Positions 5,473 to 38,483 are shown, counted from the stretch's first letter. The stretch: DNA of 64,000 bases from Bacteroidota bacterium (GCA_018266955.1 JAFDZI010000014.1:662-64661), one strand, 5' to 3'. Numbers and translations are program-made. Notes: generated by a model from the sequence alone, not told the origin.

Positions 5473-6303
5473 CTATTTAGAAAATTCTATATAAATTTTT
5501 TCTCCCACATCTAATCCCAGTAAGTTGCGGGCACCATTGTTGAAGCTTCCTTTATAAATGGCGATTTCTAAATAGTGTACATCATTAAATAATGCCATTT
5601 GTTTGCCATAATACTTAGGTTCATCTTGGTAGTTTTTGATACAATCGGTATAGTTTTTATAGATCTTTTTGACTTTTAAATTTCTGAATTTAATTACAAA
5701 ATCTTTATTTTTTGCACTATGGGTTTCAAATAATTCTTTGGTAATATTGGCTACAGCATTGCCGAAATGATCGATATAGATGATTTCACCCAAAATCATG
5801 TTTTGTGCTTCGGCATAGTAGGCCTTAGGAAGAGAAAGTTCTTTGGGGTCTTTGATTTTTCTACCAATTACTTCGGGAACTCCGCCGTTTATTAAATGGT
5901 TGGCAACGGGTACGAAAATATCTCTAGTAACGCATTGTACTTCATCGTCAAATCGGTTATTAATGGTGATTTCGTACACCGCAGAGGCTTGAATTTCCGG
6001 AAAAGTAATGGATAAAAGTCCATTGTCTGCTGATAAAAAATAATGACCATCAATCTCAAAAAGTAAAAATCGTCTGTCGGGATGGTATAAACTATCGATG
6101 CTGATGAGATGAATCGTCTTTTTTGGGAAATGATGGTAAGCATTTCTAATAATATAGGATGCTTGAAGTAAATTATGCGCTTGAATTTGATGACTAATAT
6201 CGACAATCGAAATTTGAGGATTTAGACTAAGGATATTGCCCTTTATTGCGGCTACTCTGTAGTCTGTGTTTCCAAAATCGGATGTGATGGTTATAATTGA
6301 CAT
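5473..6303 (-). CDS. SAM hydroxide adenosyltransferase / DUF62-family (chlorinase-fluorinase fold) protein
   Basis: N-terminus ITITSDFGNTDYRVAAIKG matches the T-D-F-G...D-x-Y-V-x-x-x-K-G signature I recall for this family. Length 276 aa fits. Confidence 0.6.
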   Translation of the reverse strand: MSIITITSDFGNTDYRVAAIKGNILSLNPQISIVDISHQIQAHNLLQASYIIRNAYHHFPKKTIHLISIDSLYHPDRRFLLFEIDGHYFLSADNGLLSITFPEIQASAVYEITINNRFDDEVQCVTRDIFVPVANHLINGGVPEVIGRKIKDPKELSLPKAYYAEAQNMILGEIIYIDHFGNAVANITKELFETHSAKNKDFVIKFRNLKVKKIYKNYTDCIKNYQDEPKYYGKQMALFNDVHYLEIAIYKGSFNNGARNLLGLDVGEKIYIEFSK

Positions 6304-6441
6304 GAAAATTCAAGTGTATTTTTGAGTTTTTGCAAAAGTAAATGAAAATTAATGGAAATAAAAAGGTTTCATAGTAAAGAATTTCCTCATAGAATTAAAA
6401 AAAAGTAATAACTTTAGAATTCAAAATTTAACACAGTTATT

Positions 6442-7401
6442 ATGTACGAATTGAACTACGAGCTAAAAGATATTGATACTAAACTTTTTTATGGGGTACA
6501 AAATCAATTTTTTAATTTAATCAAATCCTCGTTTCCAACACTAAAAATTACCGGAAGAGATCATTTTATTTTCGCTATGGGCAATCAAGAAACCCTAGAT
6601 GTCCTCAAACATAAACTGAATGATATCGTATTGTTTATTTCCAAAAATAACCAAATGACCATAAAAGATTTGGAAAGTATTTTAAAAATAAAAGATGAAT
6701 CTGAAAAACAGTTGGTTTTTGACCAAGACATAATTGTAAAAGGTGTAAATGGTAAAATCATCAAAGCTAAAACGACTAATTTGAAAAAATTGGTGAAAGA
6801 AGTAGAGAAGAAAGATATGGTATTTGCCATTGGACCTGCCGGAACAGGAAAAACTTACACTTCGGTTGCCATGGCAGCAAGAGCCTTGCGAGACAAGGAA
6901 GTGAAACGAATAATTCTTACCAGGCCAGCTGTGGAGGCTGGAGAAAGTTTAGGATTCTTGCCGGGAGATTTAAAAGAAAAGCTAGATCCTTATTTGCAGC
7001 CTTTATATGATGCGTTACGAGATATGATTCCGTTTGAAAAATTAGAAGGCTATATCGAGAAAAAAGTGATAGAAGTGGCACCTTTGGCATTTATGAGAGG
7101 GAGAACCTTGGATGAAGCTTTTGTAATTTTGGACGAAGCACAAAATACCACTCATTCTCAGATGAAAATGTTTTTGACTAGAATGGGGATGAATGCCAAA
7201 TTCATCATTACCGGAGATCCCAGCCAAGTGGATTTGCCTTTGAAACAAAAATCCGGACTCAAAGAAGCCATGAGGATACTGAAAGATGTGGACGAAGTAG
7301 GTTTTATCCATTTAACAGAAGAAGATGTAGTGCGCCATCCTGTGGTTAGGAAAATCATCAACGCATACAGTAAAGAAGAAAAAAGATTGCGAGAAGAATA
7401 A
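6442..7401 (+). CDS. phoH: PhoH-like ATPase
   Basis: Walker A GPAGTGKTY, then ILTRPAVEAGESLGFLPGDLKEKLDPYLQPLYDAL, which is characteristic of PhoH. Confidence 0.9.
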   Translation: MYELNYELKDIDTKLFYGVQNQFFNLIKSSFPTLKITGRDHFIFAMGNQETLDVLKHKLNDIVLFISKNNQMTIKDLESILKIKDESEKQLVFDQDIIVKGVNGKIIKAKTTNLKKLVKEVEKKDMVFAIGPAGTGKTYTSVAMAARALRDKEVKRIILTRPAVEAGESLGFLPGDLKEKLDPYLQPLYDALRDMIPFEKLEGYIEKKVIEVAPLAFMRGRTLDEAFVILDEAQNTTHSQMKMFLTRMGMNAKFIITGDPSQVDLPLKQKSGLKEAMRILKDVDEVGFIHLTEEDVVRHPVVRKIINAYSKEEKRLREE

Positions 7402-7655
7402 AATTTAATTCATATTTTAAAATTGGTTAAAGTTTTTATAATGCAATACATTGCTTTGTAATGGAGGTTTTAAACTAATTTGTTGTTGGATTTCCGATTG
7501 AAAACATTATTCTATTTTTGTAGCCTACTGATATACAAATGAATGGAAATTAAATTAAGGTTAAATTTTGTTTAAAAATAAATTGTTAAAAATTTGTTAA
7601 TTAAAAAAAAGTTTTTTACATTTGTTTAAGGTTTAACAAAATAAATTACAAAATC

Positions 7656-8153
7656 ATGAAAAAGTTATTATTATTAGGTGCCTTTGCACTTTTCGGATCA
7701 ATGAATGCTCAGTCTGGTTTTAAACTGGGAGCTCATGTAGGATTGCCTCTAGGAGATGCAGGTGATTTTTACTCTTTCACATTAGGTGCCGATGCTGCAT
7801 ACTTGTGGCCAGTTGCAGATAATTTTTCTGCAGGTATAGCTACAGGATATTCTGCTTGGATAGGAAAATCGGTTAATGTTCCTTATTTAGGAAGTGTTAA
7901 ATATGATACAATGAGTTTAATTCCTATTGCTGCCACAGCCAGTTATAGAATTGCAGAGAATTTTAACCTAGGTGCAGATTTGGGTTATGGTTTTATGATG
8001 GTTTCAGGGGCTAACGACGGAGGATTCTACTACCAGCCAAAAGTATCATACACCATTGGTAATGGAGAAGTGGTTCTTGGATATCAAGGTATTTCTAAAA
8101 GTGGAACTTCATTTAGTGCTATTAATTTAGGATACAATTTTTTCTTAAAATAA
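7656..8153 (+). CDS. small outer-membrane beta-barrel protein
   Basis: Signal peptide ending NAQS, alternating G/aromatic beta-strand pattern, C-terminal aromatic-rich strand (NLGYNFFLK). Confidence 0.6.
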   Translation: MKKLLLLGAFALFGSMNAQSGFKLGAHVGLPLGDAGDFYSFTLGADAAYLWPVADNFSAGIATGYSAWIGKSVNVPYLGSVKYDTMSLIPIAATASYRIAENFNLGADLGYGFMMVSGANDGGFYYQPKVSYTIGNGEVVLGYQGISKSGTSFSAINLGYNFFLK

Positions 8154-8174
8154 ACGAAAAAAAATTATTGTATT

Positions 8175-8204
8175 ACCGCTTCAATTTTTTGGAGCGGTTT
8201 TTAT
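8175..8204 (+). terminator. Rho-independent terminator
   Basis: ACCGCTTC...GGAGCGGT hairpin followed by TTTTTATTT. Confidence 0.6.
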
Positions 8205-8299
8205 TTATACTAAATCTAAACAAAGAGAATCTGATTTTCGTCATTTTTTTTAGAAAAGCCCTACTGTACCTTTGTTCTACAAAATTTAGATAAGAAATT

Positions 8300-8899
8300 A
8301 TGAAAAAATTATTCATGGCTGCAGCTATTGCAGTATGTGGTTTAGCTTCTGCTCAATCAGGATTCGAAGGAACTTCATTTATTACAGGTCAAGTGCAATA
8401 CAACCGTGTAGATAACAAAGCTGCAAACACTACAGTAGATACTTTTGCAGTATTGCCAGCGGCAGGTACTTTCATTACACCTACTATTGCAGTAGGAGGT
8501 GCTTTGGGATATCAATCAGCAATTCAAGAAAGTACTTTGGGGCCAATTACCAGCAAAACTACTGATGGAGCGTTCGTAATTATGCCATTTGTAAGAAAAT
8601 ATTGGGGACTAGGTGAGAAATTATATTTCTTCGGTCAATTAGATGTTCCTATGGCATTTGGTAAAGTTAAAAATGAAGTTACAGGATTAGGTTCTACTTC
8701 TACAAATTACTCAGCTTATGGTGTTAACATCAGACCGGGATTGGATTATTTCGTAAACAACAATTGGTCTTTCGAGGCTACTATTGGTCAGTTTGGTTAT
8801 AACACAGCTAAGCCAGAAGGTGGAAAAAGCACAGATAACTTCGGATTTGGTTTGAACTTAAGCAGCATCACTTTCGGTGTTAAATATTTATTCAAATAA
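8300..8899 (+). CDS. outer-membrane beta-barrel (porin-family) protein
   Basis: Signal peptide (ASAQS). Beta-strand periodicity. Ends in ITFGVKYLFK with a terminal aromatic-x pattern. Confidence 0.6.
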   Translation: MKKLFMAAAIAVCGLASAQSGFEGTSFITGQVQYNRVDNKAANTTVDTFAVLPAAGTFITPTIAVGGALGYQSAIQESTLGPITSKTTDGAFVIMPFVRKYWGLGEKLYFFGQLDVPMAFGKVKNEVTGLGSTSTNYSAYGVNIRPGLDYFVNNNWSFEATIGQFGYNTAKPEGGKSTDNFGFGLNLSSITFGVKYLFK

Positions 8900-8922
8900 T
8901 AATCAATGCTCTATTGATATTA

Positions 8923-8955
8923 GGATCCTGAGAAAATTTCTCAGGATTTTTTTTA
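8923..8955 (+). terminator. Rho-independent terminator
   Basis: ATCCTGAGAAA / TTTCTCAGGAT stem followed by T8. Confidence 0.75.
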
Positions 8956-8986
8956 TCCTTACTTTTGTTTTTATTTTTTGAAAATT

Positions 8987-9394
8987 ATGGATTTTAACAT
9001 ACATCATTTAGAAGAATGGCCATCGGTAGTCCAAGCGATTTTGCCAAAACTTCGACACAATATTTTAGTATTAAAAGGGAATTTGGGAGCAGGAAAAACA
9101 ACATTTACCCAATTTTTACTTCAGCAATTAGGAAGTACCGATGTGGTTTCTTCTCCTACTTATGCCATAGTAAATGAGTATTCATCGCCTAAAGGTAAAA
9201 TTTTTCACTTTGATTTGTACCGTCTCAATTCAATAGAAGAAGTATTGGATATCGGGATTGAAGAATATTTGGACTCTGCCTGTTTATCCATCATTGAATG
9301 GCCGGAAATTTACCAACAAGAACTCGACTATTTAGATTATCACGAAATGACAATTGAGAATGATGGGAGTCAAAGATTGATTCATTTTCAATAA
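8987..9394 (+). CDS. tsaE: tRNA t6A37 biosynthesis ATPase TsaE
   Basis: GNLGAGKTTFTQ P-loop, SPTYAIVNEY, HFDLYRL and IIEWPE motifs. ATG at 8987 is preferred over the TTG at 8978 used by the ORF track. Confidence 0.85.
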   Translation: MDFNIHHLEEWPSVVQAILPKLRHNILVLKGNLGAGKTTFTQFLLQQLGSTDVVSSPTYAIVNEYSSPKGKIFHFDLYRLNSIEEVLDIGIEEYLDSACLSIIEWPEIYQQELDYLDYHEMTIENDGSQRLIHFQ

Positions 9395-9562
9395 GAAACA
9401 AAAGAAATTATAATTGGGATGGATTTTAGATTATATACCTATCAAATAGAGGAAAAATAGAGAGATTACCATAATTTCCCAACAGATTATTGATTTATTT
9501 TAATTCATAAAACTAGAAACATCCGTATCTTTGTTTTTTGATAATGGATAATAGAATTTACC

Positions 9563-10756
9563 ATGAGTACAACCAATGTTTTTACCCCTTTTTCCGAAAA
9601 AGAACTCATTCCAAAAGAAGAAAAATTGGAAGTGTTGAAAAAAGGTAAAAAATTTAGTATCGGCATTCCCAAAGAAACATGTCTTAATGAAAGAAGAACT
9701 TGTATCACTCCAGATGCAGTGCAAGTTTTGGTCTGTAATGGGCATTCCATTATCATAGAGGCCGGTGCTGGAGCTGGTTCTTTCTTTACAGATATTCAGT
9801 ATTCCGAAGCAGGAGCCCAAATTGTGCAAGATGCTACTACTGCTTTTCAGCAGGATTTGGTACTCAAAATTAACCCTCCTACTTTAGAAGAAATAGAATT
9901 GCTGAAACCCAATACCTATTTGGTATCGGCGTTACAAATTAATCTTAGAGACAAAGAGTATTTCGAAAAATTAGCAATTAGTAAAGTAAATGCCATCGCA
10001 TTTGAATTCATCACCGACGAATACAAACAGCAGGCACTTGTAAGGCTAATAGGAGAGATTGCAGGAAATATTTCCATCCTTTATGCATCGGAATTATTAG
10101 CGCTCTCCAATGGACTTATGTTGGGAGGAATTACTGGAGTTAGACCAGCAGAAGTGGTTATTATTGGTGCTGGAATTGTAGGTGAGTTTGCAACAAAAGC
10201 CGCTGTAGGATTGGGTGCAAGTGTTAGGGTTTTTGATAATTCTTTATCTAAATTAAGAAGACTCCATACACTGGTGGACAACCGTGTACCTACATCCATT
10301 ATCGATCCTAAAGAATTAACCAAAAGTTTGAGAAGAGCCGATGTGGTTATAGGATGCCTTCCTCGATTGAATTTTGCGCCAATCGTAACGGAAGATATGG
10401 TGATGAAAATGAAGAAAGGATCCGTAATTATAGATGTTACCATAGACAATGGGAAGGTGATAGAAACATCCGAACTTACAACTCAAAATAATCCCTTCTT
10501 TGTAAAACATGATGTAATCCATTGTGGTTTACCTAATTTAACTTCCAAAATGCCTAGGACTACTTCCAAAGCTATTTCTAATTTCTTTCTCAGTTATTTA
10601 TTAAACTATGATGAAGAAGGTGGCTTCGAAAACATGTTGATGAAAAATAGTGAAATGAAACAATCACTTTACATGTACAAAGGCCGACACACCAAAAAAA
10701 TATTATGCGATAAATTTGGTCTGACTTACCACGACATTAATCTGTTGATATTTTAA
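9563..10756 (+). CDS. alanine dehydrogenase/PNT-family NAD(P)-dependent dehydrogenase
   Basis: N-terminal IGIPKE..ERR motif and Rossmann motif VVIIGAGIVG, as in AlaDH / transhydrogenase alpha proteins. Confidence 0.7.
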   Translation: MSTTNVFTPFSEKELIPKEEKLEVLKKGKKFSIGIPKETCLNERRTCITPDAVQVLVCNGHSIIIEAGAGAGSFFTDIQYSEAGAQIVQDATTAFQQDLVLKINPPTLEEIELLKPNTYLVSALQINLRDKEYFEKLAISKVNAIAFEFITDEYKQQALVRLIGEIAGNISILYASELLALSNGLMLGGITGVRPAEVVIIGAGIVGEFATKAAVGLGASVRVFDNSLSKLRRLHTLVDNRVPTSIIDPKELTKSLRRADVVIGCLPRLNFAPIVTEDMVMKMKKGSVIIDVTIDNGKVIETSELTTQNNPFFVKHDVIHCGLPNLTSKMPRTTSKAISNFFLSYLLNYDEEGGFENMLMKNSEMKQSLYMYKGRHTKKILCDKFGLTYHDINLLIF

Positions 10757-10832
10757 TTGAACCTCTTTATTTTTTTTTAATGAAATAATTTTATTTCATT
10801 TAATATTTTAATTTCAAAAATTATCACGCTAC

Positions 10833-11198
10833 ATGAGAAAACTTAAATTCTTCTTTATCGGATTTATTCCGGGGCTTATATTGGTTTTATTTATTCTTAA
10901 TAAGAAAGGAGCTAGCTGCTCTTACTTTCCCAATGACAGGGTAAGAGCCGAAACCGCTACCAAAAAATTTGTATTTTCTACAGAGTTTCAACAGGCAATG
11001 CAAGAAAATAAAATAGACGAAAAATTTATTAAAGATTCTATATTGGTGAATGGAACAATCGATTTCGATAAAAGTAAAGCCCAAGCTGAACCATGCGCAG
11101 AATATTTACTGCTCTATCCCAAGAAAAATCCTCGCTTGGAAATTTATTACGGAAAATGTAAAGACGAAGCATTATTCAAAACCATGAAAAAGTTATAG
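10833..11198 (+). CDS. hypothetical membrane-anchored protein
   Basis: ORF with an N-terminal TM helix (FFFIGFIPGLILVLFIL). No recognisable catalytic motif. Confidence 0.45.
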   Translation: MRKLKFFFIGFIPGLILVLFILNKKGASCSYFPNDRVRAETATKKFVFSTEFQQAMQENKIDEKFIKDSILVNGTIDFDKSKAQAEPCAEYLLLYPKKNPRLEIYYGKCKDEALFKTMKKL

Positions 11199-32733: not shown

Positions 32734-32762
32734 AAAAAAACTCTGAACATTGTTGTTCAGAG
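32734..32762 (-). terminator. displaced native terminator of tRNA-Ala, now separated from the gene by the inserted element
   Basis: CTCTGAACA / TGTTCAGAG stem, followed on the minus strand by a T7 run. Sits 8 nt from the 15-bp copy of the tRNA 3' end. Confidence 0.65.
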
Positions 32763-32770
32763 TTTTAAAA

Positions 32771-32785
32771 GTGGAGAATACGGGA
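32771..32785. repeat. att core, distal copy (duplicate of the tRNA-Ala 3' end)
   Basis: 15/15 identity with 38409-38423. Identity stops on both sides of the 15-mer. Confidence 0.85.
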
Positions 32786-32921
32786 GTACAATAATGCAAA
32801 AATACCCTATTCTAAAAACAGCATAAATAAACGAAAACAAGTGTAAATACAATATACACAACTGTTTATAGGTGATTTGTTATTTTGTTTAGATTGATTA
32901 AAATTGAAATAGTTTTAAACT

Positions 32922-32961
32922 TACCGTACAATTACCGTACAAATTTATTATTTTTGTACAA
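32922..32961 (+). promoter_or_regulatory. candidate integrase arm-type sites (TACCGTACAA x2 at 11-bp phasing, plus GTACAA) overlapping the int promoter (-7 box TATTTTTG at 32949-32956)
   Basis: CGTACAA at 32925-32931 and 32936-32942, GTACAA at 32956-32961. The same pair with the same phasing is found at 38334-38351. Confidence 0.5.
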
Positions 32962-32972
32962 ATGATTATCAA

Positions 32973-34208
32973 ATGGCTACTATTAATTTTTTATATCGTT
33001 CGACAAAAGAAACATCAACACTTGTTTTAAGATTGTTATACAGACATAATGAAAAAGATTTTGTTCATGCTACAAAAACAAATCTACAAGTATCAAAACA
33101 TTATTGGGTAAAGGAACATAAGCAGAAACGCCCAAAAGATATCGAAATAAGCAATAGACAGCAAGAAGTAAACACGGAACTAAATAATATTAGTAACCAT
33201 ATCCTAAAGGCATTTGATGAAACTGATATTATAATGATAAATAAAGAGTGGTTACAAAATCAAACAGAACTATACTACAACCCACGACAAGAAAAAGAAA
33301 TACCTACTAATTTGATTAGTTACATAGATTTCTATTTGGAATATAGAAAACATGAGATAAAGCCTACTTCTATAAAGAAATACAATGTTATTAAACATAA
33401 ATTGGAGCGTATGCAGACCGAACGAAAAAAAACAATTTTAATATCAAACATAGATGAAAGTTTTAAAAATGAGTTTATAGCATACCAAAAGAAAAACGGA
33501 TATGCACAAAACACAATTCAAAGAGAAATAGCAATTATAAAAACTTTCTGTAAACATGCCCGATATTTAGGACTTGAAACAAGCCACCAATTAGACAAAA
33601 TAAAAGTTGATAAGGCAAAAGCAGAAAAAATCTATCTTGATTTCAAAGAATTAGATGCGATAGAAAAAACAGTATTTGAACATGACTTTTTAGAAAATGC
33701 AAGAGATTGGCTCATCATAAGTTGTTATACCGGACAAAGGGTATCAGATTTTTTACGCTTTACAAAAGACATGATAAGAACTGAAAACGGCAAACAGTTA
33801 TTGGAATTTACCCAAAAGAAAACAGATAAACTGATGACTGTACCTCTTCATAAAAAGGTACTTCAAATACTTGACAAACGAAATGGGGAATTTCCACGCC
33901 AAATTTCAGACCAACGATATAATGAATACATAAAAAAAGTTTGTGAATTATCAAAAATCAATAAAATAGTACAAGGCGGAAAACAAACCGAAACCGATAA
34001 TGGAATAAGAAAAGTCACGGGCAATTTTCAAAAATGGGAACTCGTTACATCACATATTGGCAGACGGTCATTTGCTACAAACTTTTACGGAAGTATTCCA
34101 ACTTCTTATTTGATATACATAACTGGACATAGTAGTGAAGCGATGTTTTTAAACTACATAGGAAAGAGCAATAAGGATTTAGCAATGGAAATAAGCAACT
34201 ATTTTTAA
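32973..34208 (+). CDS. int: tyrosine site-specific integrase (Bacteroidota type with N-terminal arm-binding domain)
   Basis: N-terminus MATINFLYRSTKE...LVLRLLYR is arm-DNA-binding-domain-like. Catalytic region has GQRVSDF (Arg), HIGRRSFAT (H-x-x-R) and GHSSEAMFLNYIG (Tyr nucleophile). Confidence 0.9.
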   Translation: MATINFLYRSTKETSTLVLRLLYRHNEKDFVHATKTNLQVSKHYWVKEHKQKRPKDIEISNRQQEVNTELNNISNHILKAFDETDIIMINKEWLQNQTELYYNPRQEKEIPTNLISYIDFYLEYRKHEIKPTSIKKYNVIKHKLERMQTERKKTILISNIDESFKNEFIAYQKKNGYAQNTIQREIAIIKTFCKHARYLGLETSHQLDKIKVDKAKAEKIYLDFKELDAIEKTVFEHDFLENARDWLIISCYTGQRVSDFLRFTKDMIRTENGKQLLEFTQKKTDKLMTVPLHKKVLQILDKRNGEFPRQISDQRYNEYIKKVCELSKINKIVQGGKQTETDNGIRKVTGNFQKWELVTSHIGRRSFATNFYGSIPTSYLIYITGHSSEAMFLNYIGKSNKDLAMEISNYF

Positions 34209-34219
34209 ATTTTTGATTT

Positions 34220-34966
34220 ATGAAAGATTTTGAACTATTCAGAAAGGAAAATGAAGATTTAAGTTTTGAGGAAGCAGTATTGAAGTTTATACAATTGGAA
34301 CACAAAGCCGAACCATTACGCCAAAAAATAAGAAAACCAATTGATTTAGGCAGTCATATTTTAATCCGATATAACACGGCAGAAGAATATAAAGAAGCGT
34401 TTTTTCAGGCGATAAATAAGCCTTATGCAGACATAGAAACCGTGAAGCAATCTTTTATTGATGAATACATTTACCCAGCTTTTAATCATAAACAGAGCGG
34501 TAAAATTTACAATGATATTAGAGCAGGGAAAAATATAAACAAAGAAGATTTTTCATATCAGGCGACAAAATACGCTTTATTAGAACTGATGAGGTTTGAA
34601 GGTTTTTTGAATAATAAAGAACCTCAACAGCCTGAACATAAAAAGACTGATGAGGTTAAAGAGGTTAAAAAAGAATTGCACAATCATATTTTTAAAGGTA
34701 ATGCTTTTGAAGTTTTTGAAAAGTATCATAAAAATTACAACTTAGCAGAAAACAGCAGGACGGATTTAAACTTATTATATCAATTATTCAAAAATGATAA
34801 CCTTTTTGTTGATACTGTTGAATTGAAACATTACATACAATGGTTAAATAATACTTATGGTTATAGTGTCACGGAATTAAGAAAAGTAGATATAAATTCA
34901 CGACCAAACATACAAAGAACAAACCGATATAAAGAATATAAAACCACAACCTTAAAACAACCTTAA
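34220..34966 (+). CDS. hypothetical protein (element cargo or regulator, unknown function)
   Basis: 248-aa ORF with normal codon and aa composition, 12 nt after int. No motif I can assign. Confidence 0.5.
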   Translation: MKDFELFRKENEDLSFEEAVLKFIQLEHKAEPLRQKIRKPIDLGSHILIRYNTAEEYKEAFFQAINKPYADIETVKQSFIDEYIYPAFNHKQSGKIYNDIRAGKNINKEDFSYQATKYALLELMRFEGFLNNKEPQQPEHKKTDEVKEVKKELHNHIFKGNAFEVFEKYHKNYNLAENSRTDLNLLYQLFKNDNLFVDTVELKHYIQWLNNTYGYSVTELRKVDINSRPNIQRTNRYKEYKTTTLKQP

Positions 34967-35040
34967 AATAGGTCAAATTAACCTTTTCATAGGTTAAAAC
35001 CCATTCAATCTTTGTGATATAAATTTTAATTATTACAAAG

Positions 35041-35310
35041 ATGACAAATTCAATTTTAATTCAAAATGTAAGCACCGAAGCATTAACGGCGCTAATTAAA
35101 GAAGCCGTAAAAAACGAGCTGAACAATCTACCAACTCATAATCCTGATGAGTTATTGACCCGTGAAGAAACTTGCAATTTTCTGCAAATTGATAGTTCAA
35201 CCCTTTGGCATTGGACAAACAAAGGCAAGGTAAAAGCGTATGGTATCGCCAACCGCAGGTATTATAAAAAAGCGGAATTATTAGAAGCACTTAAACCCCT
35301 AAAAAAGTAG
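35041..35310 (+). CDS. helix-turn-helix DNA-binding protein, excisionase/AlpA-like
   Basis: 89 aa. LLTREETCNFLQIDSSTLWHWTNKGKVKAYGIANRRYYKKAEL is the MerR-superfamily HTH_17/Xis pattern common next to Bacteroidota integrases. Confidence 0.7.
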   Translation: MTNSILIQNVSTEALTALIKEAVKNELNNLPTHNPDELLTREETCNFLQIDSSTLWHWTNKGKVKAYGIANRRYYKKAELLEALKPLKK

Positions 35311-35314
35311 AGCC

Positions 35315-35629
35315 ATGAGTACAAAACATACACACGACTCAAATATTCTTTTAGGTAGGAATATGAGCAAAGATACGCATTTTCAAGCACAAATGAAAAG
35401 GGTTTATTTAGCCTTATACAAGCAACCAAAAACAATGTTGATGGTTTCTGTTGAAACAGGAATTTTAAGAGCTAATATTTGCCGTTATATTGCAGAATGG
35501 AAGCGATTAAATTGTATTCATGAAGTTAAGACAGGCATTTGTCCAATTTCAAAACACCGAGCAGGGTTTTACACTACCAACCCCGAGATGTTTCCGTCTA
35601 TTGTTGAACTTTCAAAAACTGAAAAATAA
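35315..35629 (+). CDS. small hypothetical protein, possible winged-helix DNA binder
   Basis: 104 aa. Segment MLMVSVETGILRANICRYIAEWKR looks HTH-like. Its stop overlaps the start of the next gene (TAATG). Confidence 0.4.
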   Translation: MSTKHTHDSNILLGRNMSKDTHFQAQMKRVYLALYKQPKTMLMVSVETGILRANICRYIAEWKRLNCIHEVKTGICPISKHRAGFYTTNPEMFPSIVELSKTEK

Positions 35630-36657
35630 TGAGTACTATAATAAACCCCGATTTTTCAGACCTCAACAATCCTGATACAATTCTAAACCATTTTGAGGAA
35701 TTAAGGCAAGAATTTGAGCATTGGAAACAAGATAGTGATATAAATATTTTCAGTCCATTGAAGACAGCTAATAAAACAATTGAAGAAGCTAACAAAGAAC
35801 CTGACCCCGAATATTTATATCCAACTTTATTAATAGAAAACGAATTTACAATACTCTTTGCAGACACAGGGATTGGTAAAACGGTATTTGCTACCCAGAT
35901 AGGAAACTATATTGCCGAAAGAGGACGGAATGTATTATTGTTAGACCTTGAATTGTCAAAGAAACAATTTGAAAAAAGATATAAAGATGAGAATGGTAAG
36001 CTTTATAAATTTTCAGATAACTTTTTCAGAATTGATTTTGAGCGACTGAAAGAAGTTCCGAAAGACATATCTTATTTAGATTTCTTCATTAAATCATTAA
36101 CCAAAAGAATTGATGATGGTAATATTTCTGTTGTTATACTTGATAATTTGACGAAACTATCTGCAGGAAGCACAGACAATGCAAAAGACACGATACCCGT
36201 CATTGAAGCGTTGAATAAATTAAAATTTGAAAAAGACCTCACAATACTTGCACTGGAACATAATAAGAAAGTAACACCTAATAAACCAATTGAATTAAAC
36301 GATTTGCAGGGCAGTAAAATGAAGTCAAATTTGTGTGATAGTGTTTTTACGATAGGGCGACATTCGACTGATAAATATTTAAGATATATCAAACAAGTAA
36401 AGGTTAGAAGCGCAGAGCTTATTTGTGATACTGAAAATGTATTGAAGTGTGAGATACTTTCCGAAAATGGTTTTTTACACCTCAAAGAAATTGGATACGG
36501 TAGCGAATGGGATTTTATTAAAGAACCCACCGAAAACAACAAAAGCGACCTAATAATGCAAGTCAAAGAATTGAGCCAAAGCGGACATTCACAAAGGCAA
36601 ATTTCTAAAGATTTAGGCATATCGTTAGGAGCGGTAAATAAGTATTTAAAAAAGTAA
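35629..36657 (+). CDS. RecA-fold (RepA/DnaB-like) ATPase with C-terminal HTH, putative replication initiator-helicase
   Basis: Walker A ADTGIGKTVFATQ, Walker B VVILDNLTKL. C-terminal SQSGHSQRQISKDLGISLGAVNKYLKK is a resolvase/sigma-r4-like HTH. Confidence 0.7.
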   Translation: MSTIINPDFSDLNNPDTILNHFEELRQEFEHWKQDSDINIFSPLKTANKTIEEANKEPDPEYLYPTLLIENEFTILFADTGIGKTVFATQIGNYIAERGRNVLLLDLELSKKQFEKRYKDENGKLYKFSDNFFRIDFERLKEVPKDISYLDFFIKSLTKRIDDGNISVVILDNLTKLSAGSTDNAKDTIPVIEALNKLKFEKDLTILALEHNKKVTPNKPIELNDLQGSKMKSNLCDSVFTIGRHSTDKYLRYIKQVKVRSAELICDTENVLKCEILSENGFLHLKEIGYGSEWDFIKEPTENNKSDLIMQVKELSQSGHSQRQISKDLGISLGAVNKYLKK

Positions 36658-36663
36658 AAAAGC

Positions 36664-36766
36664 GTTCACACCGTTCACGATGTTCACGATATTTAAACCG
36701 TGAACACCGTGAACACCATGAACACCATGAACATCATGAACAGAAAAAAAAATGAACATGGAACAC
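36664..36766. repeat. iteron array, putative element origin of replication
   Basis: Three 9-bp units containing GTTCAC (36664-36690), a 10-nt AT-rich spacer, then five units NNNRTGAAC in the opposite orientation (36701-36743), A8, and two more TGAACA/GGAACA copies at the primase start. Confidence 0.7.
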
Positions 36767-38011
36767 AGATACCAATTAGAAAAAGGCAGTAAGAAACACC
36801 ATTGCCCACAATGTAATAAGAAAACATTTGTTAAATACATTGATACCGAAACAGACGACTATTTGCCCGAACATTACGGTAGGTGCGACCGTGAAAGTAA
36901 ATGTAACTATCATCTAAACCCTTATGCAGATGGTTACTCAAAAGCAATTTGGGAACAGGAACACGGTAATCGTTCAGAATTGCCAAAAAGTTGGAAACCT
37001 CAACAAAAAAGAGTTACACCAACGCCCGAACATCAACCCGTGTTTTTTGACTTTGAAACCTTTAAAGAAACCCTATCTAATTATGATAAAAATACATTCA
37101 TACAAAATTTACTTAATACCTTTAATCCTGATGAGGTTGCAAAGGTTATTGAGTTATACCGATTGGGAACTAACAACAGAGAGTATTTAAACGGTGCAAT
37201 ATCCTTTCCTTTTATTGATATTAACCAAAAGGTTAGAGCGGTACAATTAAAGCAATTTGATAAAGATAATCATACCATAAACCAAAACTGGCTACACTCT
37301 ATTATAAAGCCACAACCCGAATGGATTGAAGCTTATAAAAAAAATGATAAGATAGTATCGTGTTTATTTGGCGAACATCTTTTAAATAAATTCCCAAACA
37401 AACCAATCGCATTAGTAGAAGCACCCAAGACGGCAATTTATGGTTGGTTATACTTCAATAAAAGCAAAACATTTTTAAAGGATTGTATTTGGTTGGCAGT
37501 ATTCAACAAAAGCAGTTTTTCATTTGATAAATTGAAAGTACTACAAGGGCGTTTTGTGTATGTATTTCCCGACTTATCAAAAGATGGTAGTACATTCATA
37601 GAATGGGAAACCAAAGCCAAAGAATACGAAAAGAAGCTACACATCACACGGTTTATTTTTTCCGACCTATTGGAGCGTTTAGCAACTCAACAGGATAAAG
37701 ATAACGGTTCAGATTTAGCCGACATTTTAATAAAACACGATTGGCGAAAATTTAGAAAGCGAAAGCAGTACAGCGAATACACCAAAAGCGAAAGGCTACA
37801 ATTAGGATTGAGTATTTTTAAAATTGAAGCTTTAAAAGATTTGGTAAGCAGGATTTTTAAAGTAAAATCATCTTTTGATGTTTACGAATTGAAAGACCGT
37901 ATAAACGAAATAGAAGACGGATTGAGCAAAACAGATGTTGAAGATTTAACGGATATATTAATCATTAAGCAGTTAGTAACAAGTAAAGATTTTTTGATTT
38001 ATGAGAAATAA
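36752..38011 (+). CDS. putative DNA primase (Zn-ribbon plus Toprim-like domain)
   Basis: N-terminal HHCPQCNKK...(x23)...GRCDRESKCNYH zinc ribbon. ALVEAPKTAIY and VYVFPDLSKDG resemble the Toprim Glu and DxD motifs. Confidence 0.55.
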   Translation: MNMEHRYQLEKGSKKHHCPQCNKKTFVKYIDTETDDYLPEHYGRCDRESKCNYHLNPYADGYSKAIWEQEHGNRSELPKSWKPQQKRVTPTPEHQPVFFDFETFKETLSNYDKNTFIQNLLNTFNPDEVAKVIELYRLGTNNREYLNGAISFPFIDINQKVRAVQLKQFDKDNHTINQNWLHSIIKPQPEWIEAYKKNDKIVSCLFGEHLLNKFPNKPIALVEAPKTAIYGWLYFNKSKTFLKDCIWLAVFNKSSFSFDKLKVLQGRFVYVFPDLSKDGSTFIEWETKAKEYEKKLHITRFIFSDLLERLATQQDKDNGSDLADILIKHDWRKFRKRKQYSEYTKSERLQLGLSIFKIEALKDLVSRIFKVKSSFDVYELKDRINEIEDGLSKTDVEDLTDILIIKQLVTSKDFLIYEK

Positions 38012-38300
38012 TAATGGACAATTTAGCAAAGGAAATTCAGGCAGACCAAAAGGAGCGCAAAACAAGAACACCAAAGAATTAAAGCAATTGATAGGCAATT
38101 TTGTTTTTGATAATTTGGAAAGTATGCAGGGTAAATTTGAAGAATTGGAAGCCAAAGACCAAATAAGAATGATGATAGACCTCATCAAAATTATCATTCC
38201 GAAAAACGAACCCGAGCAAGAGGAAAGACCTCAACCAATGATTTTAAATGTTGATGAAATTATCCAAAACATGAGAAAACTTGAAACTGGAGAGGAATAA
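38001..38300 (+). CDS. small basic/acidic protein with N-terminal GNSGRPKG motif (DUF5681-like)
   Basis: 99 aa. Overlaps the primase gene end by 11 nt. The motif FSKGNSGRPKGAQNK is one I associate with phage-borne DUF5681-type proteins. Confidence 0.5.
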   Translation: MRNNNGQFSKGNSGRPKGAQNKNTKELKQLIGNFVFDNLESMQGKFEELEAKDQIRMMIDLIKIIIPKNEPEQEERPQPMILNVDEIIQNMRKLETGEE

Positions 38301-38330
38301 AAAACGGAGATAAACGGTATAGAAATTTAC

Positions 38331-38351
38331 AACCGTACAATAATCGTACAA
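38331..38351 (+). promoter_or_regulatory. candidate integrase arm-type sites at the tRNA-proximal end (CGTACAA x2, 11-bp phasing)
   Basis: CGTACAA at 38334-38340 and 38345-38351, in the same orientation and spacing as at 32925-32942. Confidence 0.5.
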
Positions 38352-38367
38352 ACACAAAAAAATAGAA

Positions 38368-38404
38368 AGCGTAACAACCTAAAAATAAGGCGGTTACGCT
38401 TTTT
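38368..38404 (+). terminator. Rho-independent terminator closing the element operon
   Basis: AGCGTAAC / GTTACGCT stem, then TTTT, ending 5 nt before the att core. Confidence 0.65.
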
Positions 38405-38409
38405 GCTTG

Positions 38410-38483
38410 TGGAGAATACGGGATTCGAACCCGTGACCTTTTGACTGCCAGTCAAACGCGCTAGCCAACTGCGCCAATCCCCC
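38410..38483 (-). tRNA. tRNA-Ala (anticodon GGC)
   Basis: Hand-folded 74-nt cloverleaf. Acceptor GGGGGAT/ATTCTCC with the G3:U70 Ala identity pair. D stem GCGC/GCGC. Anticodon stem TTTGA/TCAAA with loop CTGGCAG. T arm ACGGG-TTCGAAT-CCCGT. Discriminator A. CCA is not encoded. Confidence 0.9.

Follow-up and report, generated by a model that had tools for sequence, protein, structure and literature searches.

A compact tRNA-Ala-integrated element of Bacteroidota: a relaxase-less, probable minimal integrative replicon of the NBU/Tn4555 superfamily

What kind of mobile element is built from an integrase, a set of apparent replication genes and no gene for its own transfer, and how would it move? 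This question is raised by a 5,653-bp insert (32771-38423) in a tRNA-Ala(GGC) gene of a Bacteroidota bacterium (GCA_018266955.1 JAFDZI010000014.1:662-64661). The whole stretch of 64,000 nt was analysed and is called the window here, and coordinates are counted from its start. We consider it fairly probable that the insert is a minimal and complete integrative replicon belonging to the NBU/Tn4555 superfamily, which has lost or replaced its relaxase and depends on a helper for transfer. This estimate covers excision and integration, replication and helper dependence, and not the choice of the helper. The integrative-replicon reading is well supported, and the element represents something new, namely a relaxase-less, iteron-bearing minimal branch of the known Bacteroidota mobilizable-transposon superfamily. 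No description of a relaxase-less branch was found in the searchable literature.

The insert is flanked by exact 15-bp direct repeats. The repeat sequence GTGGAGAATACGGGA is present in exactly two copies in the window, one at each end of the insert. Dinucleotide-preserving shuffles gave a chance expectation of 0.01 copies, and two copies were found in none of 100 shuffles. The G+C content is 0.27-0.35 within the insert, compared to 0.36-0.40 in the flanks. Seven open reading frames (ORFs) lie between the repeats, all intact, tightly packed and on the plus strand, with gene overlaps of 1 nt at 35629 and of 11 nt at 38001-38011, and the non-coding stretches are confined to four of 74-187 bp. An initial annotation, made from the sequence of the window alone, had described the repeat-bounded insert in tRNA-Ala, the seven genes with their order and both overlaps, an iteron array between an ATPase and a primase gene, and a terminator just before the att core, and all of these features were recovered (Table 1). 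Profile searches also agreed with its labels of a tyrosine integrase, a Xis/AlpA-like helix-turn-helix (HTH) protein, a RecA-fold ATPase with C-terminal HTH and a Zn-ribbon primase-like protein. Its statement that the genes for transfer are absent held as well: the seven window proteins had no match to relaxase, type IV secretion system (T4SS), capsid, portal or terminase families in Pfam, PHROGs, NCBIfam and PADLOC.

The center of the element is a helicase-iteron-primase module. ORF5 is a putative initiator-helicase of the AAA_25 family, and its C-terminal HTH comprises residues 305-342. The iteron array directly behind its gene consists of three copies of GTTCAYnnn (36664-36690), a 12-nt A+T-rich spacer (GATATTTAAACC) and five inverted copies (36700-36744). 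The triple-unit pattern is expected 0.00 times by chance and occurs four times in the window, always in this region. Inverted iteron arrays were found at the helicase-primase junction in most of the related loci, and the sequence of the iteron unit tracks the type of helicase, being GTTCAC or GTAACA for AAA_25, TGGCAC for DUF3987 and CTACACTAT for D5. The correspondence extends into the AAA_25 group itself, in which 8 of 8 proteins ending with ...SQRxISxELGISLGAVNKYLK are paired with GTTCAC and both proteins ending with ...TNxMKVKRTLDK are paired with GTAACA. Such a pairing would be expected if the C-terminal HTH of ORF5 reads the iterons. The covariation of the iterons with the helicase and its C-terminal HTH argues that the array is a real replication origin.

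The helicase gene in front of the DUF6371 gene is exchangeable. Across the relatives the position is occupied by three unrelated families, i.e. AAA_25, D5_N/DUF5906 of superfamily 3 (SF3) and DUF3987. Kazlauskas et al. described that RepA/DnaB, D5, DUF3987 and VirE domains interchange beside the primases of mobile genetic elements, and this was read as helicase function (PMC5862659). The partner protein ORF6, which carries the label "PG0870-related" protein, has four Cys, E223, D274 and D278 as invariant residues. These resemble the Toprim motif set, and ORF6 is thus a putative Toprim-like primase. Homologues are also found in replication contexts of phages. The homologue in the gut phage csAssE-Sib (151 kb) bears the annotation DNA primase and has a "DNA replication factor" on one side and a DnaB-like helicase on the other, and in several IMG/VR contigs the homologue is followed by a DUF3987 helicase. 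Taken together, the swapping of helicases, the covariation of the iterons and the homologues in phage replication modules support the view that the element has a replication module of its own. The initial annotation had proposed such a module, and the comparative data make the case much stronger than the sequence of the window alone.

Comparison of the core genes revealed a relationship with Tn4555 and the NBU elements, which had been missing in the initial annotation and is its main correction. Only one paper in the literature searched names DUF6371, and it does so for a gene of Tn4555. The 10,057-bp circular B. fragilis record CP103138.1 (L055; L numbers denote individual loci and contigs), which is filed as a "non-mobilizable plasmid", is a Tn4555 circle with the gene order TnpA, Int, TnpC, Xis, AAA ATPase, DUF6371, Mob, cfxA. 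ORF5 is 38% identical to the AAA ATPase of Tn4555 over 299 residues, and ORF6 is 31% identical to its DUF6371 protein. The iterons of Tn4555 (1007-1069 in L055) comprise three GTCCCA, 12 bp and three TGGGAC, and lie inside the 3' end of the ATPase gene. The NBU-type element MTnBf8 has the order int...DUF3853...AAA...Toprim primase...mobN1...attR-tRNA-Ser and is excised in about 6% of the cells (PMC13597742). The identities of ORF5 and ORF6, the gene order and the iteron layout together indicate that the core for excision and replication is common to the element and the classical Bacteroides mobilizable transposons.

The marker order of this superfamily, i.e. tyrosine Int, post-Int protein, HTH-type Xis, AAA_25 ATPase and DUF6371/Toprim protein, is the same in the element, as is the inverted iteron layout at the helicase-primase junction of Tn4555, and with MTnBf8 the element has in common that its site is a tRNA 3' end and that int is distal to the tRNA. 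The differences from Tn4555 are nevertheless considerable. The element has no Mob relaxase and no mapped oriT, and o99 occupies the mob position. It lacks the TnpA targeting protein and a cargo gene, its Int is tRNA-specific and about 26% identical, its post-Int protein is unrelated to TnpC, and it is about half the size of Tn4555. To our knowledge, the known Bacteroidota mobilizable elements (NBU1, Tn4555, Tn4399) all carry a relaxase. Linkage of homologues to a relaxase, which the initial annotation had named as an argument against its proposal, was observed for the distant relatives (about 31% identity), but not for relatives at 52-70% identity.

The iteron layout of Tn4555 and the deposition of its circle as a plasmid suggest that Tn4555 has an origin and may replicate after excision. 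Three scaffolds from a Mexican study of human faeces, filed as 'Bacteriophage sp.' and without annotation (L056-L058; MT837912, MT839118, MT836643) turned out to be Tn4555 or Tn4555-like, and MT839118 is 100% identical to Tn4555 in TnpA, TnpC, Xis, AAA and DUF6371; mobilizable-transposon DNA is thus filed as phage in GenBank.

The element belongs to a large family. More than 2,400 relatives of ORF6 were found in a protein collection of metagenome protein clusters, mostly with identities of 60-70%. Scanning one genome per species yielded 50 loci, and according to the record titles almost all of them are from Bacteroidota, including Flavobacteriales, Chitinophagales, Sphingobacteriales, Cytophagales, Bacteroidales and Saprospiraceae. 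When the neighbouring ORFs were clustered locally, a family backbone emerged that consists of Int, a variable post-Int protein (c6 or o248), HTH_17, o104, helicase, DUF6371 and o99, with or without c7, and with an optional gene for a TnpA-like HTH_17 protein of about 190 amino acids before Int. In eight relatives of 5.3-9.0 kb, 13-45 bp from the 3' end of a minus-strand tRNA are repeated at the boundaries; the targets are Ala(GGC) in three cases, Ser in two, Met in two and Pro in one. The closest full-length relatives were found in Moheibacter (L018, L023) and in a metagenome-assembled genome (MAG) of Chitinophagales (L022), with Int identities of 70-77%. Two relatives are carried by cultured strains, L023 by Moheibacter stercoris DSM 29388 and L016 by Epilithonimonas hominis DSM 22165. 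A variant of the right end with about 90% identity is present in the matching tRNA-Ala in two other samples, and the host flank differs in one of them (L070), the contig of which passes the tRNA. The presence of this variant in the same tRNA-Ala with a different host flank indicates recent movement of the element between hosts.

Several members of the family deviate from this scheme. Six loci (L003, L015, L028, L030, L031, L037) form a sub-family that has the extra TnpA-like HTH_17 gene before int; here the element is found immediately downstream of mnmE (trmE) instead of at a tRNA. The mnmE gene is also the target of SGI1 in Proteobacteria. In L083 (8001-15377; Int 82% identical) the element is integrated at the 3' end of the tmRNA, and a single orphan protein of 792 amino acids, without Pfam or PDB match, replaces the helicase and DUF6371 genes. 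Three element-bearing contigs were binned to a bacterium of the candidate phyla radiation (CPR) or to a cyanobacterium (L020 and L049, Candidatus Paceibacterota MAG; L021, Pseudanabaena MAG). Most likely these are mis-binned mobile elements, and a wider host range is less likely.

The conservation within the family also bears on the possibility that the insert is an immobile, decayed remnant of a larger prophage, integrative and conjugative element (ICE) or mobilizable transposon. The small size, the lack of transfer genes and the fact that ORF6 is devoid of the C-terminal DUF6965 domain found in most relatives would be in line with decay. Yet none of the seven tightly packed ORFs is disrupted, the att repeats match exactly, the arm sites of the integrase are intact and conserved, the compact tRNA-bounded architecture of 5.3-9 kb recurs in at least eight distant genomes, and the variant of about 90% identity resides in the same tRNA in another host background. 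A decayed prophage or ICE fragment, which the initial annotation had named as a possible objection, was rejected on the grounds of the intact ORFs, the exact att sites, the recurring architecture and the variant in another host background, and we regard the remnant explanation as very improbable.

The integration module of the element was characterized further. The int gene starts 188 bp from attL, and Int comprises a SAM-like and a catalytic domain, while the N-terminal 110 or so amino acids are devoid of a domain assignment and are probably the arm-binding part. The left pair of arm-type repeats was found at matching positions in L018 and L022, which have Int proteins of 76-77% identity. In L023, with an Int of 70% identity, TGTGTGCATTT substitutes for the arm repeat at both arms. 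The arm-type repeats thus co-vary with the Int clade. The right pair is kept in the variants of about 90% identity (L069, L070). The arm repeat pairs, together with an inverted repeat adjacent to xis and the action of the right-end hairpin on both strands, were added to the features described previously.

Two kinds of contigs are informative about excised or tandem forms. The 7,848-bp Joint Genome Institute (JGI) metagenome contig L060 (JGI 3300044940) contains a c7-to-Int junction and has exactly identical ends of 127 bp (1-127 and 7722-7848). These ends lie in a duplicated 72-bp iteron unit (GTTTCC / GGAAAC), and each backbone gene is present once, so that the contig is either a circle or an identical tandem of a relative. 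Along with the plasmid-like record of the Tn4555 circle and the excision of MTnBf8, L060 supports the proposed mechanism indirectly. In four metagenome or viral contigs (L001, L004, L059, L063) two different members of the family were found head to tail, with c7/o99 directly followed by another Int, and the duplicated ends are 81-92% identical. These contigs show the repeated accretion of distinct elements at one att site.

A number of observations weigh against the integrative-replicon reading. Scans for degenerate attP, attB, attL and attR junctions in metagenome and viral contigs gave no matches, and since a known attR on a 2.2-kb contig was also missed, the power of these scans was low. 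Rather than circles, most of the circularly permuted contigs represent tandem arrays in which the elements are not identical. The iteron array might serve as an operator and not as an origin, and genes homologous to those of the core are reportedly excision factors, not replication factors, of NBU1 in the older literature. Excision of NBU1 requires a large region that includes two further genes, the oriT and part of the relaxase gene (PMC5704250). The assignment of ORF6 as a primase is based on motifs and context: an hhalign comparison with E. coli DnaG was insignificant (probability below 1%) and paired RFVYVFPDLSKDG with RFMFLPDGEDPD (PDxxxDG with PDGEDPD), ORF6/DUF6371 has no relative in the PDB, and an AlphaFold2 prediction of ORF6 with 25 relatives of about 60% identity reached a predicted local distance difference test score (pLDDT) of 48, which is an unusable model. 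Finally, o248, o104 and o99 are devoid of an assigned function, and any of them could be an unrecognised relaxase or regulator.

The genes for transfer are missing not only from the window. A homologue of Tn4555 Mob was found in none of 54 related loci, and none of the eight tRNA-bounded relatives has a gene of the size of a relaxase. Downstream of the primase genes of relatives, 92 ORFs were located within 5 kb, and mainly housekeeping functions were assigned to them in a Pfam scan. Relaxase, T4SS or phage structural families were not among the 25 families listed for these ORFs, and hence no relaxase or phage structural family matched two or more of them. Since genes for a relaxase, a mating pore, a capsid and a terminase are all lacking, the element must rely on a helper to move between cells.

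The best candidate for a helper-hijacking function is o99, together with c7 in the relatives. The o99 gene sits exactly in the mob position of Tn4555. The family is represented in 26 loci by proteins of 70-200 amino acids, and c7, of about 195 amino acids, in 21 loci. A profile search assigned 1,261 unnamed proteins to the o99 family, whereas a single-sequence word-index search retrieved only o99 itself and one variant. Eight of 16 sampled members matched PF18932 (DUF5681; best 4e-8) and four PHROGs of unknown function; the DUF5681 match of o99 itself is weak. The AlphaFold2 model of o99 was uninformative (pLDDT 65), with a disordered N-terminus carrying GRPKG that is followed by a helical hairpin, and a Foldseek search of BFVD gave no match with E < 0.03. 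A tblastn search of members of the o99 family against phages gave one weak match, a DUF5681 protein, and in the temperate Bacteroides phage BF1-TP2 the DUF5681 gene lies near the integrase and repressor genes and not beside the terminase. A DUF5681 protein has been detected in the virion proteome of a Salmonella phage (PMC8954984). By hhalign, neither o99 nor c7 is related to Tn4555 Mob, and c7 is not related to the other downstream proteins of about 200 amino acids. The suggestion in the initial annotation that the 99-residue protein redirects packaging is thus not borne out by these weak matches of unknown function and the uninformative structure model.

The position of o99 would fit an integrative mobilizable element (IME) without relaxase. 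After excision, and perhaps after transient replication, a Bacteroidota conjugative element or mobilizable transposon residing in the same cell would provide the relaxase that nicks a cryptic oriT, the DNA would leave through the T4SS of that element, and o99 and c7 would act as relaxosome accessory factors. In favour of this, the core has its homologue in Tn4555, and the genes follow one order in both. Tn4555, NBU1, NBU2 and Tn4399 are mobilized by Bacteroides conjugative transposons, and IMEs that are devoid of a relaxase and have an accessory factor only are known, for instance MGIVchHai6 and SGI1 (PMC5704250). In addition, the right-end hairpin could act as an inverted repeat of the oriT type. 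However, an oriT was not identified, and the four non-coding stretches are already taken by the arm sites, the operator, the origin and the terminator. The lack of relaxase and T4SS families among the 25 listed for the ORFs downstream of relatives, the dissimilarity of o99 to Tn4555 Mob and the full helicase-primase-origin module, which would be unusual for a purely conjugative hitch-hiker, also speak against this explanation, and on balance we consider it rather unlikely.

A second possibility is that the element is a phage satellite similar to the PICMIs (phage-inducible chromosomal minimalist islands). A helper phage would induce the xis-rep operon, the element would be excised and over-replicated to concatemers, these would be packaged by the headful mechanism into helper capsids, and o99 would redirect or mark the DNA. 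PICMIs are 6.1-kb elements of Vibrionaceae for which int, alpA (PF05930/PF12728) plus a primase of the DUF3987/DUF5906 type suffice; packaging genes are absent, and the DNA travels in the form of concatemers (PMC10803314). The architecture of the element is similar to this definition, with about 6 kb, six or seven genes, an int, an AlpA/HTH_17-class regulator and a primase-helicase, and genes for capsid remodelling or terminase are absent from both. Within the PICMI marker set the element has int and PF12728, whereas its AAA_25 helicase and DUF6371 primase fall outside; relatives with DUF3987 or DUF5906 helicases would have the complete set. Unlike the PICMIs, the family has its helicase as a separate protein, together with an iteron origin and a primase of the DUF6371 type. 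PICMIs adjoin fis and are confined to Vibrionaceae, whereas the element lies in tRNA-Ala, and their helper, induction and concatemer packaging are established experimentally. The likeness of the element to them is one of architecture.

Further arguments for the satellite explanation are the lack of a relaxase in more than 40 loci and the phage connections of o99, i.e. the phage families matched by its relatives, the DUF5681 gene in a temperate Bacteroides phage and the DUF5681 protein in a virion proteome. In addition, the 18.4-kb IMG/VR contig L072 contains a primase of the DUF6371 family type (66-1337, 57-67% identical) within 5 kb of phage tail genes (6045-10861). One of these encodes a tail protein of 1,398 amino acids (phrog_19846, E 4e-193), and the contig end cuts the upstream context, so that L072 is either a phage using a family-type primase or an element inserted beside a prophage. 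Virion-encapsidated integrative mobile elements (VEIMEs) include elements integrated in Flavobacteria (bioRxiv 10.1101/2022.07.26.501625).

The distribution of the family points in the other direction. Only three close relatives were found among the 2.9 million contigs of IMG/VR, compared to the more than 2,400 metagenome protein clusters, and there were none in the GenBank phage records. This is weak evidence against carriage in virions, because satellites without viral hallmark genes are poorly captured in these collections. The core descends from, or is common to, transposons that are mobilized by conjugation, DUF5681 has no known function and is not next to the terminase in BF1-TP2, and neither a divergent repressor nor an identifiable pac or cos site is present. 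A described satellite family of Bacteroidota was not found in the literature searched, and we know of no experimentally shown phage satellite in this phylum. The family is nearly absent from IMG/VR and GenBank phages. The phage-satellite part of the initial annotation is unproven, its integrative-replicon part stood, and we regard the satellite explanation, too, as rather unlikely.

The comparison was extended to other elements. With the phage-inducible chromosomal islands (PICIs) of the SaPI type the element has in common a helicase-initiator with an adjacent iteron origin, a paired primase and an island with int and xis, by architecture and covariation and not by homology. Its order is helicase-ori-primase and not pri-rep-ori. 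All seven genes are on the plus strand, no minus-strand ORF has family support, and a divergent repressor of the Stl type is lacking, as are matches to terS, ppi, cpm or capsid genes (Pfam, PHROG), and the element is half the size. Membership in the SaPI-type PICIs was rejected because there is no divergent repressor and there are no packaging or capsid-remodelling genes. A P4-like satellite was likewise rejected, as only int and an AlpA-class HTH are present and psu, sid and delta matches are absent. The P4/PICI-like core of the initial annotation is not one by descent, the homology being to Tn4555 and distant (about 31% identity). An ordinary plasmid was also considered there. With the whole element as query, blastn gave no match among the phages of GenBank and the plasmids of PLSDB, and tblastn against plasmid records gave Bacteroidales matches of at most 34% identity; the one inspected is the Tn4555 circle CP103138.1. 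An ordinary plasmid was rejected, as no close relative was found among the plasmid records searched.

By description, the element also resembles the tycheposons of Prochlorococcus (bioRxiv 10.1101/2020.12.28.424599) and the VEIMEs. Both are elements with a tRNA-targeting tyrosine recombinase, some have primase/helicase modules, and they have no transfer machinery of their own. Tycheposons differ by their large cargo, and VEIMEs are defined by recovery from virions.

A mechanism can be proposed that combines these features. Int would bind the paired arm sites (two CCGTACAA per arm) and the 15-bp core that the element has in common with the 3' end of tRNA-Ala, and, together with the Xis-like HTH_17 protein, might excise a 5,638-bp circle that could be re-inserted into tRNA-Ala(GGC). 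While the anatomy of these sites is apparent, the activities are deduced from it. As suggested by the covariation, the AAA_25 helicase would bind the inverted iterons after its own gene via the C-terminal HTH and melt the 12-nt A+T-rich spacer, the Zn-ribbon/DUF6371 protein would prime, and the host polymerase would copy the circle. The excised element could then persist or be amplified, and transfer would occur via a helper, with o99/c7 as a candidate hijacking function. For the transfer itself, phage particles with concatemer packaging as in PICMIs are a tentative option, other routes or no transfer at all are tentative to the same degree, and a conjugative element acting in trans is somewhat less probable.

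The features of the element and its target are compiled in Table 1.

Table 1. Features of the integrated element and of the adjoining host DNA, in window coordinates
Feature	Position	Strand	Description
Orphaned terminator hairpin of the original tRNA-Ala locus (host DNA)	32737-32766	-	Probable; 13 pairs then T-run, terminator scan
attL core	32771-32785	.	15-bp direct repeat duplicating the tRNA-Ala 3' end
Left arm-type repeat pair ACCGTACAATTACCGTACAAA	32923-32943	+	2 x CCGTACAA, 11-bp period; putative Int arm-binding sites
Tyrosine integrase (Int), 411 aa	32973-34208	+	PF13102 + PF00589; phrog_1 at 2e-29
o248, orphan protein in post-integrase slot	34220-34966	+	C-terminal domain (~130-248) conserved, N-terminus variable
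Inverted repeat CTTTGTGATAT...ATTACAAAG adjoining the xis start codon	35010-35040	+	Conserved in L018, L023
HTH_17 protein, 89 aa	35041-35310	+	PF12728 at 1.5e-9; excisionase PHROGs
o104, conserved small protein	35315-35629	+	Same position in 32 loci
AAA_25 (RepA/DnaB-like RecA-fold) helicase with C-terminal HTH (ORF5)	35629-36657	+	PF13481 at 1e-18, DnaB_C, phrog_239/19
Putative replication origin	36664-36744	.	Inverted iteron array, 9-bp period
Zn-ribbon + DUF6371 protein (ORF6), 419 aa	36752-38011	+	PF21957 at 7e-25 (Zn_ribbon_16), PF19898 at 7.5e-40
o99, DUF5681-like small protein	38001-38300	+	N-terminal GNSGRPKG motif + helical hairpin
Right arm-type repeat pair ACCGTACAATAATCGTACAAA	38332-38352	+	11-bp-spaced CCGTACAA repeats
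Bidirectional terminator hairpin	38366-38402	.	-21.5 kcal/mol, z = -4.6; just before att core
attR core	38409-38423	.	15-bp direct repeat, genuine tRNA 3' end
tRNA-Ala(GGC), integration target	38409-38483	-	ARAGORN + Rfam

Two hairpins frame the element. The left one lies just outside of attL and adjoins the 15-bp partial copy of the tRNA; it is probably the original terminator of tRNA-Ala, which was moved 5.6 kb away from the tRNA by the insertion. The right-end hairpin is predicted to close the operon of the element and, at the same time, to provide tRNA-Ala with a replacement terminator. Counterparts were found in L018, L022 and L023. A sigma-70 promoter scan performed no better than on shuffles, the model being ill-suited to Bacteroidota. 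The inverted repeat in front of xis is a candidate operator or promoter of the xis-rep operon, and the HTH_17 protein encoded behind it is a putative recombination directionality factor of the Xis/AlpA class and/or a regulator.

The remaining two proteins have few matches. The C-terminal domain of o248 is common to 240 representative clusters, and o248 gave no match in Pfam, PHROGs, NCBIfam, PADLOC or PDB and is not related to c6 or TnpC according to hhalign. In the post-integrase region of L085 (1024-2349) a c6-like N-terminal part (67% identical) is joined to an o248-like C-terminal domain (80% identical), and judging from this combination, the proteins in the post-Int slot seem to be modular and to serve a single function. 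The small protein o104 probably has a winged-helix fold; its PDB matches, to Z-alpha and MarR winged HTH domains, were all sub-threshold, and it had no match in Pfam, PHROGs or NCBIfam. PDB sequence and profile searches with ORF6, ORF5, the o248 and o104 families and the 792-residue protein of L083 yielded no significant match. PADLOC predicted no defence system among the window proteins and returned generic HTH and P-loop matches only.

Bacteroidota are dominant in the communities of the gut, freshwater, marine particles and wastewater. The family has thousands of members throughout the phylum, has kept genes for excision and replication and has no transfer gene; either it is a new class of hitch-hikers, or it indicates that self-replication is the conserved heart of the NBU/Tn4555 superfamily. 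One far-reaching version, which we put forward as speculative and unlikely as a whole, is that these phylum-wide minimal relaxase-less replicons are the Bacteroidota counterpart of PICMI-type satellites, in which mob/oriT was swapped for a phage-hijacking o99/c7 module, and that they are derived from or ancestral to the NBU/Tn4555-type transposons; as a corollary, the classical Bacteroides mobilizable transposons would carry a functional helicase-iteron-primase origin and replicate after excision. The transfer route of this huge family is a well-posed question. In addition, the helicase-iteron-primase unit would offer a compact portable origin, which is a possible replicon for cloning in Flavobacteriia and in further Bacteroidota with poor genetic tractability. 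Judging from the iteron layout of Tn4555, a replicating circle may be an intermediate in the spread of cfxA, and the conservation of the origin implies that replication after excision may also occur in the textbook Bacteroides mobilizable transposons.

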